NCBI RefSeq assembly: GCF_002803295.2
Contig: NZ_PGGB02000013.1
Span: 1 to 32,000, forward strand
Origin: Caedibacter taeniospiralis
GTDB lineage: Bacteria; Pseudomonadota; Gammaproteobacteria; Francisellales; Francisellaceae
Length of the DNA stretch: 32,000 nt
Direction: 5' to 3'
Below the pieces are notes generated by a model. That model saw only the letters and a list, made by a program, of their open reading frames with translations. It did not search any database and had not been told where the DNA came from. Every line of letters starts with the position of its first letter. Within the stretch, counting starts at the first letter, position 1. A program made the position numbers and the translations under genes. Below are positions 15,116-20,163 of the stretch, piece after piece.

Positions 15116-15853
15116 ATGTTACATTGTGCTTTTTCTGGGGAATTATTGGGATGCCTTGTTCTGATATTATTGGGTGGCGGGGTGGTTGCTGGTGTTTTAC
15201 TCAAACAGTCAAAAGCAGAAAATAGCGGCTGGATGGTTATTACCGCGGGTTGGGGATTTGCAGTGATGATGGCAGTGTTTGTGGCGCAAGCGGCAGGATC
15301 GCCACAAGCGGATATTAATCCTGCGGTAACCCTTGAGAAATACCTGCTAGGTGATATTTATTCATCTTTTCTGCAAGTGATTTGGTTATGGCTGGCTCAG
15401 GTTATTGGCTGCTTTTTAGGGGCTGTGCTGGTCTGGCTTGCCTACTATACTCATTGGCAATATACCGAAAACGCCCATTTTAAATTAATGATTTTTTCCA
15501 CTTATCCAGCTATGCGCCATAAGGGCAGCAATTTTGTCACTGAACTTATTGCCACGACTTTGCTTATTGTGTTTGTTGGAGCATTGATCAGTTATGGCAA
15601 CCAATTACCATTTGCTAATGGTTCATTACCTTATGTCTTTGGTTTTGCCGTTTGGGGAATTGGTTTATCTTTAGGTGGTCCCACGGGTTACGCGATTAAT
15701 CCCGCGCGTGATTTAGGACCCCGAATTGCCCATGCCCTATTGCCAATTAAAGGCAAAGGTTCAAGTGACTGAAGTTACGCATGGGTCCCGATATTGGCAC
15801 CCTTAGCAGGAGCAGTGATTGGGTTTGTATTAATTCGGCTTTTTATGTTTTAA
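15116..15853 (+). pseudogene. glpF: MIP-family aquaglyceroporin (GlpF-like) interrupted by an in-frame TGA at 15770-15772
   Basis: Both NPA boxes are present (NPAVTL, NPARDLGPR). The track ORF stops at ...KGKGSSD*. The same frame continues SYAWVPILAPLAGAVIGFVLIRLFMF* to the TAA at 15851-15853, which encodes the missing last TM helix. Confidence 0.7.
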
Positions 15854-16400
15854 AGCAAAGTAGGGGCGAAAAATGTTTCGCTTTTTATTAAATCTTCTTC
15901 CAGTGCGAGCAATGCCTTCTCAAAATTAATGACAAGAATTCCATCACTAAGATATCGATCTTCCTTGCCCATATAGAGAATCGTGCACTTAGCCATAGGG
16001 TAATCCTGTTTAAAATGCTTAAGACCTGTTGGCATTCTGCAGAAATGACGGGGTCAGGGCTGATTTTCGCACACTACCCCCAACAATATAATAATTGGAA
16101 AGTTTAAGTCGATCGATGAATTCAATCAAAACATCAGTAAAACCCTTTATGCTGTAGTACCAAGCATATTGATGGCAATCAACGTAGTTTGATAAACCAT
16201 GTCCAGGAAAATCGAGGCAAACCAAGTTGTACTGCTTTTAATAAATCGCAAAGTGGTTCATATGATGTTGTCGATGAATGAAAAGCATGTAATAACAGCA
16301 AAGTTGTATTTTTCCCAGATATGGCATTTGAGTAGTGTAGATTTCCAAATTTAAAATTCATAATATCTGACTGCATACTGATTAATTTTTTTACTGTCAT
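15850..16400 (-). pseudogene. Alpha/beta-hydrolase pseudogene (at least 2 frameshifts plus an internal deletion)
   Basis: Three consecutive minus-strand ORFs in three frames read as pieces of one protein: ...TTLLLLHAFHSSTTSYEPLCDLLK / (Q)YNLVCLDFPGHGLS...YYIVGGS / C-terminal piece. The first shift maps to the A-run around 16236-16240. The total span of 183 codons is too short for the fold. Confidence 0.75.
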
Positions 16401-17750: not shown

Positions 17751-17812
17751 CCTTACCACTCTAGAGAGGAGTGGTAAGGCTTGTGGGAGAGGTCGCCTTG
17801 CCAAGCAAGGCG
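17751..17812. repeat. Two hairpins (11-bp arms CCTTACCACTC/GAGTGGTAAGG; 7-bp arms CGCCTTG/CAAGGCG), with a CCTTA x3 microrepeat at 17741-17755 overlapping the first arm
   Basis: Read directly: hairpins at 17751-17779 and 17794-17812, CCTTA repeats at 17741-17755. They overlap the last ~17 codons and the stop of the DUF2063 gene. Confidence 0.8.
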
Positions 17813-18561
17813 GGTGGGGGGTAGATTACCCCTTCATTTAATAAATTCCACATTAAAGTCCGATTGCTTGCCATTACTTTTGCTACTTCCTTCTTATCCT
17901 TGATAAGCATTACTTGTCCAAGCGCCTGCTTGAGCGTTTGAGGTGTCTGTTTTAAATGCTGTAAAAATCTTGCGGTTAGCGCATTTAATTCAAGGGATTG
18001 AACTGCGTCTTTGCTATTGCGATAAATGCAAAAAAAAGTGGGCTTTTGATCCCCTATCTCAGGCAAAAATGTCGCGCTAATTTGATGCACAGGATAATGA
18101 TAAGCGACAATTTCAGCGACATCAGACACAGAATATATCGTGTGATTATCATCAATTTCTCGAGTCATTAAAGTCGATGGCGCCTCGCCTTCAGCCATTT
18201 CAATGACCATTTCCATCCACTCATAATGCGCAAGCTCCATTAAGAAAGGGTAATCTGTTTGCCACAGCATTTTATGGTGCAGTAAGAATTCAACAAAGCT
18301 TTGAGGAATTTCATAGAAGAAGGGGGATTGGCATGGATGCTCAGCATAGAATTGTGTGACTATTTCGTGCCACTTTTTTGAGGGTAGTGCATTTATACAG
18401 ATTGGAAAACAATTACTCAGCAATTCATTTATTCCGTTAAAAAAAGATTGCTCATACACTTGCATCCTTTGAAGCGGAATACCTTCAGGCAGAGGCACTC
18501 TATCTTTGTGACGTATGCGTCTGGCAAAGCTTTTTTGGGTGGCTTGAAATTCAAATGGCAT
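17761..18561 (-). CDS. DUF2063-family RiPP maturation partner (HvfC/BufC-like)
   Basis: 266 aa. FQATQKSFARRIR...QRMQVYEQSFFNGINELLSNCFPICINAL fits the DUF2063 N-domain pattern. It overlaps the upstream DUF692 gene by 11 nt. Confidence 0.8.
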   Translation of the reverse strand: MPFEFQATQKSFARRIRHKDRVPLPEGIPLQRMQVYEQSFFNGINELLSNCFPICINALPSKKWHEIVTQFYAEHPCQSPFFYEIPQSFVEFLLHHKMLWQTDYPFLMELAHYEWMEMVIEMAEGEAPSTLMTREIDDNHTIYSVSDVAEIVAYHYPVHQISATFLPEIGDQKPTFFCIYRNSKDAVQSLELNALTARFLQHLKQTPQTLKQALGQVMLIKDKKEVAKVMASNRTLMWNLLNEGVIYPPPALLGKATSPTSLTTPL

Positions 18562-19396
18562 AAGCTTTCCCCTCTATAAAACGCTGTTGTAATTGCTGAA
18601 GTTGCTTTGTCTCTTGTAGCAAAACCTCTAATTGAGGGACTTCATTATCGCGCTCAAGCAAAGTAGGCAAGAGCCCATGCTTTTGATAGGTGTAATTGAG
18701 CAGTTGCCAAACAGGCTCGATTACCTCATCACCATGGGTATCAATAATCAAATCGGGAGCCTTTTGCCAATGCCCTGCGATGTGGATATAGGCTATTTTA
18801 TTCGTTGGCATTTGATCGATAAATCGGTAAGCGTCATAGCCATGATTAACGCTATTGACGTACACATTATTCACATCGAGTAACAACAAACAATCCCCTT
18901 CACGAAGAATTGCGTTGATAAAGTCCGCCTCTGACATATCTCCCTTGGGTAAGGCGTAATAAGAGATGTTTTCCAAAGCAATGCGCTGCTGTAACGCTTC
19001 TTGGACCTGTTTAATCCGCTTGACCACATAACTCACCGCTTCTTCTGTGAAAGGAATAGGCATCAAATCATATAGCTGCCCCTGGCTGTCACTGCAAAAA
19101 CTCAAGTGTTCACTGTAAAGTTGAATCTTGTGGTTGTGGAAAAATCTTTTTAAAGATTCAATGAAACTTATGTCCAGTGGAACCAATCCACCAATAGACA
19201 ACGACAAACCATGGCAGATCATGGGATATTGCTCGCTATAGGCACGGAGTATTTTTTGGCGCTTGCCACCAATTCCCAGCCAGTTTTCAGGAACAATCTC
19301 AAGAAAATCAACAGGATGTGGCTTCATTGCTAATAATGGACCCATAAACTGGCGTCTTAAACCAAGACCGCATGTGCCAATATTGTCTAGTGACAT
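18551..19396 (-). CDS. DUF692 multinuclear non-haem iron oxidase (MNIO; MbnB/BufB/HvfB-like RiPP maturase)
   Basis: GLGLRRQF...VDFLEIVPENW...ICHGLSLSIGG...LYSEHLSF...LMPIPFTEEA...IALENISYY...LLLDVNNVYVNSVNHGYDA...IHIAGH...IIDTHGDEV...PTLLERDNEVP is the canonical DUF692 (TIM-barrel) motif string. I prefer the ATG at 19396 over the GTG at 19417. Confidence 0.9.
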   Translation of the reverse strand: MSLDNIGTCGLGLRRQFMGPLLAMKPHPVDFLEIVPENWLGIGGKRQKILRAYSEQYPMICHGLSLSIGGLVPLDISFIESLKRFFHNHKIQLYSEHLSFCSDSQGQLYDLMPIPFTEEAVSYVVKRIKQVQEALQQRIALENISYYALPKGDMSEADFINAILREGDCLLLLDVNNVYVNSVNHGYDAYRFIDQMPTNKIAYIHIAGHWQKAPDLIIDTHGDEVIEPVWQLLNYTYQKHGLLPTLLERDNEVPQLEVLLQETKQLQQLQQRFIEGKAYAI

Positions 19397-19416
19397 AGTA
19401 ACTTCCCTGCAACACA

Positions 19417-19746
19417 CTATTGGTCAGTATTGCTCGCACCGCAAGAACCGTCACTATCTTTCATGTTTGAGCCGCAAGCACCATCACTGTCTTTCATGTT
19501 GGCGCCACAAGATCTGTCTGCTTTATTACCCATTGAATCAGCACTTGCCCCATCCATGTTTTTCTGTTGCGTGCCCATTTTGTTTGCGCCGCATTTTCCA
19601 GCACCACATTGACCATCTGCTTTTTGCATGAATTGTCCTGAGCCCATTTGCGTAGCCTGCATAGTATTGGAGTCAGCATAACTTGCGCTCATTGCAAGAC
19701 TCAAAGCTAACCCTGTTCCCATAGCGATTAATGATTTTTTATCCAT
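19417..19746 (-). CDS. Secreted Cys/Met-rich low-complexity precursor peptide (HvfA-like MNIO substrate candidate)
   Basis: The ATG at 19746 has AGGAG 8 nt upstream. Sec-type signal MDKKSLIAMGTGLALSLAMSASYA, then DSNTMQATQMGSGQFMQKADGQCGAGKCGANKMGTQQKNMDGASADSMGNKADRSCGANMKDSDGACGSNMKDSDGSCGASNTDQ. All 5 Cys sit in a C-G-(A/S) context. It lies 20 nt upstream of the MNIO gene. Confidence 0.75.
   Translation of the reverse strand: MDKKSLIAMGTGLALSLAMSASYADSNTMQATQMGSGQFMQKADGQCGAGKCGANKMGTQQKNMDGASADSMGNKADRSCGANMKDSDGACGSNMKDSDGSCGASNTDQ
19439..19504. repeat. Imperfect 33-bp tandem duplication inside the precursor gene
   Basis: CCGCAAGAACCGTCACTATCTTTCATGTTTGAG versus CCGCAAGCACCATCACTGTCTTTCATGTTGGCG (28/33 identical by hand). 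These encode the CG(A/S)NMKDSDG(A/S) units. A third, degraded unit follows. Confidence 0.8.
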
Positions 19747-19924
19747 TTTATTTTCTCCTTTAATTACAGTTATGTAAAGAATCACACCAATGATGCAAGT
19801 GAAGGCGCACGCTTAGAGTGATCATTCCGAGCATTAGGCTATTATGATATTTTTTGATTTGCAATGGAAATACAAATTTATTTCAAGGTGATTGGTGAAC
19901 TATGGGATAAAGATGAAAGGACGA

Positions 19925-20131
19925 GGCGAAACTTTATAGTGCCACCCATAACTGCCGCTGCTTACATGGCTCTTGAACCCTCAAGAACCAAGTGGGTGCG
20001 CTCGCTGTTTCTTGGGCTTCTCAGTCATGCTGAGCATGCACGCCAAAACAAGTACTACGCTCCCGATATTTATACATCGGCTCAAGAATGTAAAGACTGG
20101 CTAACAGCACAGGCGACACTAAACTTCGACT
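19925..20131 (-). ncRNA. ssrS: 6S RNA
   Basis: The minus-strand transcript contains, in E. coli 6S order, GCCAGUC, UGAGCCGAU, GCAUGCUC, GAGAAGCC, CUUGGUUCUUGAGGGUUCAAG and GCGGC. The ends form a long closing stem: 5' CGAAGUUUAGUGUCGCC pairs with 3' GGUGGCAC(UA)U(A)AAGUUUCG. The ends are approximate, within about 10 nt. Confidence 0.8.
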
Positions 20132-20134
20132 TAG

Positions 20135-20163
20135 ATCATAGAAGTATCCGTGCTTGAGTGCAA
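20135..20163 (-). promoter_or_regulatory. Sigma70-type promoter for ssrS
   Basis: On the minus strand: TTGCAC (20163-20158), a 17-nt spacer, then TATGAT (20140-20135). This places the start about 5-8 nt downstream, at the base of the 6S closing stem. Confidence 0.5.

Follow-up and report, generated by a model that had tools for sequence, protein, structure and literature searches.

Does the gene cassette read from the minus strand of a 32,000-nucleotide stretch of the Caedibacter taeniospiralis genome (contig NZ_PGGB02000013.1, positions 1 to 32,000; hereafter the window) encode a copper-binding peptide system of a known kind, a new subclass of such systems, or the remains of one? The cassette consists of genes for a small precursor peptide, a multinuclear non-haem iron oxidative enzyme (MNIO, DUF692) and a DUF2063 partner protein, and there is good reason to regard it as an intact hvfABC-type operon of the oxazolin/captophorin family of RiPPs (peptides made ribosomally and modified after translation). 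Judged from its sequence, it is an already annotated, apparently functional HvfABC/captophorin member, distinguished by a D-G-x-C-G precursor specific to its lineage and by Asn as the selectivity residue of its enzyme.

Genes of the cassette and their family assignment

The first-pass annotation, made from the DNA letters and their translations, had described three packed minus-strand genes with a 109-aa peptide, a 20-nt gap and an 11-nt overlap, and all of these coordinates and spacings hold (Table 1). The gap between the hvfA stop and the ATG at 19396, which is most plausibly the hvfB start, is exactly 20 nt, and hvfC (starting at 18561) overlaps hvfB (ending at 18551) by 11 nt. An AAGGAG sequence is sited 8 nt 5' of the hvfA ATG at 19746; a longer open reading frame (ORF) from a GTG at 19785 is an alternative, and RefSeq keeps the 109-aa form.

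Table 1. Coordinates of the cassette genes and associated features (numbered by position in the window)
Feature	Position	Strand	Details
hvfA-like precursor gene	19417..19746	-	109 aa; ATG 19746, stop 19417
Signal-peptide-coding part of hvfA (predicted)	19675..19746	-	MDKKSLIAMGTGLALSLAMSASYA then D; rule-based check
33-bp tandem repeat in hvfA	19439..19512	-	2.2 copies; 11-aa unit NMKDSDG(A/S)CG(S/A)
hvfB, MNIO/DUF692 enzyme	18551..19396	-	281 aa
hvfC, PME1 partner	17761..18561	-	266 aa; DUF2063 N-domain and NGO1945_C/RRE-type C-domain
Non-coding segment upstream of hvfA	19747..19872	-	moves with the cassette into a different context in close relatives
Perfect 11-bp inverted repeat, 7-nt loop	17751..17779	-	spans the hvfC stop codon

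The enzyme HvfB matched PF05114 (E=1.6e-104) and scored 409.6 bits against the HvfB equivalog model NF003818 (cutoff 360), while falling below the NCBIfam cutoffs of the BufB (NF050167, 284.3 bits vs 310), ApyH, ChrH and MbnB (TIGR04159, 50.4 bits vs 325) models; it also matched PDB 3BWW (E=1.7e-68). In an alignment with FonB of Fontimonas thermophila, HvfB of Haemophilus influenzae and NgoB of Neisseria gonorrhoeae, the ligand residues H62, H97, E142, D174, N177, H205, H209, D219, H221, E248 and D250 were invariant, with the metal-ligand motifs HGLS, EHLS, EN, DVNN, HIAGH, DTHG and ERD. N177, D219 and H221 are the equivalents of the site-3 residues N175, D242 and H244 of H. influenzae HvfB, substitution of which abolishes activity (bioRxiv 10.64898/2026.07.17.739211). 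The presumed catalytic Asp (D250) is conserved (PMC13097082), and the GLGLRR motif, the RR pair of which binds the acidic position 1 of the substrate (PMC13097082), is retained.

The partner protein HvfC passed the HvfC equivalog NF050145 (232.4 bits, cutoff 142) and matched both PF09836 (79.6 bits, E=2e-22) and PF22106, the NGO1945 C-domain resembling a RiPP recognition element (RRE; 68 bits, E=1e-18), as well as NgoC in PDB 3DEE (E=3e-8). The last ~18 residues of HvfC fall beyond the family profile. The profile check proposed in the first-pass annotation thus returned PF05114 and PF09836 together with a complete iron-ligand set, and the NCBIfam and Pfam matches bear out its description of an MNIO (DUF692), DUF2063 and signal-peptide-precursor cassette of HvfABC/bufferin type. 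Bufferin identity was rejected on the lack of a DUF2282 match in the precursor and a BufB score (284.3 bits) below 310, in agreement with the earlier statement that this is not a DUF2282 bufferin. Methanobactin (MbnABC) identity was likewise rejected, on the MbnB score of 50.4 against 325, a partner of the DUF2063/HvfC and not the MbnC type, and a precursor with a signal peptide.

The Sec signal that had been claimed for the precursor is predicted by rule-based features, namely an n-region MDKK, a hydrophobic core (the 11-mer of highest hydrophobicity spans residues 5-15) and a -3/-1 motif S-Y-A ending at residue 24 and followed by D, and this N-terminus is kept in the precursors of the nearest relatives. 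The mature part (85 aa) is rich in Gly, Ser, Asp, Ala and Met, with 5 Cys, 8 Met and 14 Gly. All five Cys stand in the context x-x-x-C-G-(A/S) (C47 DGQCGA, C52 AGKCGA, C80 DRSCGA, C91 DGACGS and C102 DGSCGA), none of them next to Pro or a charged +1 residue; four are in D-G/R-x-C-G without Lys, and two lie within the 11-aa NMKDSDGxCGx repeat. The precursor scored 24.3 bits against the NCBIfam HvfA-family domain model NF050137 (cutoff 19.5), a match that rests on the single segment GQCGAGKCGANK (the GQCGAGKCG twin), and a Pfam scan of it gave no match, including none to DUF2282. The earlier claim that the precursor is not a canonical HvfA was upheld in part, by a score of 22 against the 95 bits required by the HvfA equivalog and by an atypical D-G-x-C-G repeat; a place outside the HvfA type was not supported, as it passes NF050137 and carries one C-G-x-G-K-C-G twin.

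All three proteins are present in RefSeq as exact sequences, the precursor as WP_100550503.1 ('HvfA family oxazolone/thioamide-modified RiPP metallophore', Caedibacter taeniospiralis), the enzyme as WP_100550502.1 ('HvfB family MNIO-type RiPP peptide maturase') and the partner as WP_100550501.1 ('HvfC family RiPP maturation protein'). The suggestion of an uncharacterised subclass is largely removed by this naming and by gonococcal NgoA, which already combines single-Cys repeats with twins. The first-pass annotation had itself proposed that a close match to characterised HvfA proteins would remove the novelty; this applies in part, as the precursor is a recognised HvfA family member, yet no close match to H. 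influenzae HvfA.

Predicted maturation and substrate selectivity

HvfABC was characterised in 2024, when the HvfA product was first assigned as oxazolone/thioamide-modified (PMC11252979); 2025 brought a catalogue of ~2,000 'Buf_EGKCG/oxazolin' precursors (PMC12452194), and in 2026 more than 24,000 MNIO-PME1 loci were united as 'captophorins', such systems being present in about half of Pseudomonadota reference genomes (PMC13097082). The locus described here adds an intracellular Paramecium symbiont to the hosts of these widespread copper-peptide systems, and little beyond cataloguing. The family hallmark is conversion of Cys to 5-thiooxazole (-4 Da, ~305 nm), giving a product that binds Cu(I). 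The modification in oxazolin, fontiphorin and gonophorin is a 5-thiooxazole and not an oxazolone/thioamide, the re-assignment for oxazolin having been made by two independent groups (PMC13097082; bioRxiv 10.64898/2026.06.05.730506), and all characterised MNIO-PME1 systems install it (PMC13097082). Because of this re-assignment the chemistry in the RefSeq product name is outdated, as is the oxazolone/thioamide-like rewriting that had been cited for HvfA in the first-pass annotation. A methanobactin-like oxazolone/thioamide pair at this locus would agree with the original assignment (PMC11252979) and with the current NCBIfam/RefSeq product name, but is hardly tenable in view of the re-assignment by both groups, the same result for fontiphorin and gonophorin, and an MNIO score of 50 bits where the MbnB cutoff is 325.

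By analogy with HvfABC, FonABC and NgoABC, HvfC (DUF2063 and RRE) would bind the 109-aa precursor in the cytoplasm and also tune the iron cluster of the enzyme; in the family, the active cofactor is a diiron cluster of mixed valence whose formation requires HvfC. The TIM-barrel MNIO HvfB would use this cofactor for an O2-driven four-electron oxidation of each Cys preceding Gly, producing 5-thiooxazole with a change of -4 Da per site at up to five sites (C47, C52, C80, C91 and C102). The modified peptide would be exported via Sec and cut by signal peptidase I after Ala24, and the released ~85-residue peptide, disordered, Met-rich and periplasmic, may bind Cu(I) through its thiooxazole thiolates and buffer copper stress. 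For modification, export and copper binding at this locus we infer from the characterised members, which have N-terminal Sec signal peptides; experimental proof of Sec export in the natural host exists for bufferins alone (PMC11252979, PMC12452194).

The five Cys-Gly sites of the precursor fit the substrate rules of FonBC, by which DGKCG is fully processed, Ala, Thr or Arg is tolerated at position 3, Asp is allowed at position 1 and the residue at position 5 must be small; by the same rules the isolated single-Cys sites could be fully modified. The efficiency of modification at these isolated sites is not assured, because in vitro FonBC acted on a minimal substrate with two repeats and left one with a single repeat unmodified.

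Several observations weigh against assigning the locus to the HvfABC family as a working system. In the precursor, Lys directly precedes Cys at one of five sites and there are no EGKCG 5-mers; the NF050137 match covers profile positions 1-13 of 29 only, with one twin, and the HvfA equivalog NF050188 was failed at 22.2 bits against a cutoff of 95. On the FonBC precedent the isolated single-Cys sites may be inefficient substrates, and for NgoA it is not documented which Cys carry the modification. The signal peptide was judged by rules only. In the enzyme, the residue after Asp250, the presumed catalytic Asp, is Asn251 instead of the Phe of characterised enzymes. The DoxX partner gene is missing from the window; DoxX (HvfX) genes are frequent, not universal, in family clusters, and there is none in fon. 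The precursor of the closest relative (P0002) is without the twin and carries the PGAP name 'hypothetical protein'.

The residue next to the catalytic Asp and the precursor motif are both relevant to a second reading, essentially that of the first-pass annotation, in which the locus belongs to a subclass peculiar to its lineage, with a changed substrate selectivity and perhaps a changed metal preference or stoichiometry, Phe-to-Asn having co-evolved with the single-Cys D-G-(S/A/Q)-C-G 11-mer repeat, so that the product would differ functionally from EGKCG captophorins. The window enzyme reads ERDNEVP, whereas FonB, H. influenzae HvfB, NgoB and 3BWW read ERDFN(I/F/L)P, and F250 of FonB, which contacts Lys3 and Gly5 of the substrate, has experimental support as a residue that determines selectivity around the Cys (PMC13097082). 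MNIO homologues were searched in 185,579 species genomes, from which the best 80 loci (54-61% identity) were taken; no Caedibacter, Fastidiosibacter or Francisella genome was among them. ERDF was present in 76 of 78 of these nearest genome MNIOs. From the precursors encoded next to 65 of these 80 MNIOs, 461 x-x-x-C-G 5-mers were collected: 392 (85%) were EGKCG, 98% began with Glu and 89% had Lys as their third residue, and none was DGSCG, DGACG, DGQCG or DRSCG (0/461).

The closest MNIOs in a larger protein collection (60-67% identity) have Asn or Ser at the selectivity position, and this ERD(N/S) group includes the Thiotrichales isolates 19S3-7, 19X7-9 and 19S11-10 and a Legionella protein. 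At four ERD(N/S) loci the precursors share the N-terminus MDKK.LIAMG.GLALSL...ADS..NMQA and carry DG[KSHN]CG or SGKCG motifs; DoxX is present at two of the four (L088 and L091). The Met-rich spacer (NMKDS) of the window precursor could in addition supply thioether ligands. These points favour a subclass. On the other side, EGSCG precursors also occur beside ERDF enzymes (L029, L039 and L054) and only ~8 ERD(N/S) loci were inspected, so that the co-variation of residue and motif is not clean and remains anecdotal; the idea that the ERD-x residue goes with the precursor motif, suggestive in ~8 loci and contradicted by EGSCG with ERDF, was for this reason not retained as a finding. FonBC moreover already accepts motifs that start with Asp or have Ala or Thr as third residue, every characterised MNIO-PME1 system installs 5-thiooxazole, and the published census already contains 508 'other repeat' and 2,681 'other Cys-rich' precursors. 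We consider the subclass reading rather unlikely. Its wider form appears more doubtful still: a Caedibacter/Thiotrichales branch forming a distinct captophorin subclass with an Asn/Ser MNIO, isolated D-G-x-C-G sites and an expandable Met-rich 11-residue repeat, with a different copper stoichiometry or geometry (thiooxazole and Met-thioether), and with repeat gain and loss and cassette duplication adapting it to life inside Paramecium. In the part of the supplements of PMC13097082 and PMC12452194 that was available as text, there is no mention of DGSCG or Caedibacter, which is weak evidence. The locus offers a natural test pair for the proposed selectivity rule, with Phe250 contacting Lys3/Gly5 on the one hand and an Asn251 enzyme with DGSCG substrates on the other.

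At seven of the loci returned (L001, L005, L006, L008, L012, L016 and L038; Methylophaga and related metagenome-assembled genomes) a ~250-aa signal-peptide protein lies upstream of the MNIO and, as seen with an ad hoc script only, has a single conserved LCGCP (…ASLLCGCPI…) in place of an EGKCG peptide. It may be a different type of MNIO substrate or a mere neighbour.

Close relatives and genomic neighbourhood

Compared with orthologues of ~91% DNA identity, the ratio of non-synonymous to synonymous substitution (dN/dS) was 0.16 for hvfB and 0.25 for hvfC, inside the range of nupC, UPF0149 and ubiH (0.09-0.32), which indicates, from sequence comparison, purifying selection on both genes. Close relatives carry the hvfA repeat in other copy numbers. 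In P0002 (124 aa), the orthologous precursor, DGSCG occurs five times and neither Cys of the twin remains (DGQYGANK), for which reason it was called a hypothetical protein; precursor annotation thus depends on the twin motif, a near-identical orthologue without the KCG twin staying unnamed, and motif-based hidden Markov models therefore under-call this precursor lineage.

In relatives of 91-95% DNA identity (metagenome contigs L084-L087, and L081) the cassette from 19872 to 17780 (~2.1 kb, comprising the upstream spacer, hvfA, hvfB and hvfC) is found between varying flanks, either UPF0149-ubiH-ubiI (as in the window) or MurJ-LysM-154 aa upstream, and either NupC (as in the window) or APH-NDK downstream. 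All four flank combinations occur with an identical MNIO protein, which suggests duplicated, recombining cassette copies or chimeric metagenome assemblies. L081 (an NCBI assembly) ends exactly at the hvfB start, as expected for a repeat. In L085 and L086 (3936-4000) a 45-nt insertion is present in the hvfA-hvfB spacer (window 19397-19416), bounded by duplicated CAGGGAAG and containing a small hairpin (GGGAAGCTGATGAACTTCCC).

Some of these relatives bring in a third reading, in which the cassette would be a relic, decaying or silent in function, of an endosymbiont whose genome is eroding, with ORFs still open and the system no longer used. In the UPF0149 context, L084 (3826-3960) and L087 (3247-3381) have a precursor gene from which the first ~90 codons are missing, together with the start codon, the signal peptide and the promoter-proximal region, and which keeps only three DGSCG repeats; the equivalent of ~19831-19518 is deleted, and the deletion junction is identical in these two independent metagenomes. 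In a more distant relative (L082, 268-1014; L083, 133-930) a degenerate 87-aa precursor (P0003) has 2 Cys and later repeats decayed to GGSSSDSD and DGPSDSD, and is followed after 88 nt by an aminoglycoside-phosphotransferase-like (APH) gene, hvfB and hvfC being absent there. The missing DoxX gene and a probable frameshifted pseudogene 1.4 kb away (15850-16400) also fit decay. Set against this, the three ORFs of the window are intact, with a strong Shine-Dalgarno sequence before hvfA and a complete ligand set, the dN/dS values point to purifying selection, the precursor is still full-length in relatives with the other (MurJ) context, and the characterised fon cluster is also without DoxX. A relic appears quite improbable, and the window copy is best read as an apparently functional HvfABC member.

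The non-coding segment 19747-19872 presumably holds a putative promoter of the cassette's own. Promoter and terminator scans gave counts no higher than shuffled expectation and established no promoter; a -35/-10-like hexamer pair at 19870-19841 was rejected as a candidate, since it matched shuffled expectation and is not conserved in L081. Synteny with close relatives breaks at 19872 upstream and at 17780 downstream. The inverted repeat at the hvfC stop (CCTTACCACTC / GAGTGGTAAGG; 2 matches vs 0.25 expected) coincides with the downstream breakpoint and is not a canonical intrinsic terminator, because no T-run follows it. Short direct repeats resembling GGTAAGG come after it.

The window otherwise carries housekeeping genes (tig-clpP-clpX-lon, miaA, obg, fumC, nupC, ubiH/ubiI, lplA, PBP and tyrS). 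When its 27 ORFs were compared with Pfam, no DoxX, sigma/anti-sigma, copper-efflux or other copper gene was found anywhere in the 32 kb, so that the earlier statement that none is adjacent to the cassette is confirmed and extended. An Rfam scan upstream of hvfA returned 6S RNA alone (SsrS, RF00013; 19939-20118, minus strand; 107 bits vs a gathering score of 46.4), with no riboswitch or leader. The RNA gene is on the strand of hvfA, 192 nt upstream of it, with nothing resembling a terminator detected in between, and read-through co-transcription of ssrS and hvfABC is possible on this arrangement. The ygfB(UPF0149)-ubiH-ubiI genes are divergent from the 6S RNA gene. In E. coli, too, ygfB-ubiH-ubiI are divergent from ssrS, and ygfA/fau is co-transcribed with ssrS; hvfABC therefore occupies the E. 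coli ygfA/fau slot.

A 97-aa ORF at 19864-20157 (plus strand), without a Pfam match and unnamed in NCBI, was considered as a divergent regulator and rejected, being antisense to 6S RNA and disrupted in relatives L084 and L087; it is probably a spurious gene call. At 15850-16400 (minus strand) three consecutive short ORFs (61, 68 and 73 aa) without a Pfam match carry alpha/beta-hydrolase-like motifs (HGLS, LLLLHAFH) and probably represent a pseudogene broken by frameshifts; relatives have lost more of this region, in keeping with the erosion of an endosymbiont genome. The MIP/aquaporin ORF at 15116-15772 (plus strand) encodes 218 aa in the window and 245 aa in L084 and L085, and may be truncated or have its start called differently.

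Comparison with characterised systems

The methanobactin precursor MbnA has a leader peptide rather than a Sec signal, whereas the window precursor has a predicted signal peptide. Bufferins (BufABC) share with the window an MNIO and a DUF2063 partner, a Sec-exported Cys-containing precursor and, by analogy in the case of the window, 5-thiooxazole formation and copper buffering; they differ in their DUF2282 (Buf1) or 6/12-Cys Buf2 precursors, whereas the window precursor has no DUF2282 match, and neither sigma/anti-sigma nor DoxX genes accompany it.

The oxazolin system HvfABC(X) of nontypeable H. influenzae has the three-gene logic and Sec signal peptide in common with the window, which passes the HvfB and HvfC equivalogs, has the C-G-x-G-K-C spacing once and conserves the iron ligands including site 3. 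In contrast, AEGKCGEGKCG is repeated three times in H. influenzae HvfA, which also carries a disulfide pair at its N-terminus, and the window precursor fails the HvfA equivalog; H. influenzae HvfB is 43% identical to the window enzyme, has a 23-residue insertion that is absent in the window and a Phe after the catalytic Asp; and HvfX (DoxX) is present in H. influenzae and not in the window.

The fontiphorin cluster FonABC of F. thermophila, like the window, comprises three genes without DoxX. FonB is the closest characterised MNIO to the window HvfB (54% identity, same length class, GLGLRR), and a post-signal S/A-G-Y/F-M segment is recognisable in both FonA and the window precursor. The two differ in the seven EGKCG/EAKCG sites of FonA and in Phe250 of FonB as against Asn251.

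The gonophorin system NgoABC(X) of N. gonorrhoeae shares with the window the gene order of signal-peptide precursor, MNIO and DUF2063/RRE partner (NgoC being PDB 3DEE), but a DoxX gene, absent from the window, belongs to the ngo cluster. NgoB is an ERDF enzyme and only 45% identical to the window HvfB. NgoA mixes single-Cys x-G-S-C-G-A repeats (QGSCGASKSAEGSCGASKSAEGSCGA; QGSCGA/EGSCGASKSA) with K-C-G-x-G-K-C-G twins, comparable to DGSCGA and DGACGS with CGAGKCG in the window; NgoA has Glu or Gln at position 1 and two EGKCGEGKCG twins, against a single twin in the window precursor, where Asp occurs instead (or Ala, or Arg at position 2). For the gonophorin product 5-thiooxazoles have been shown, and it binds 1-2 Cu.

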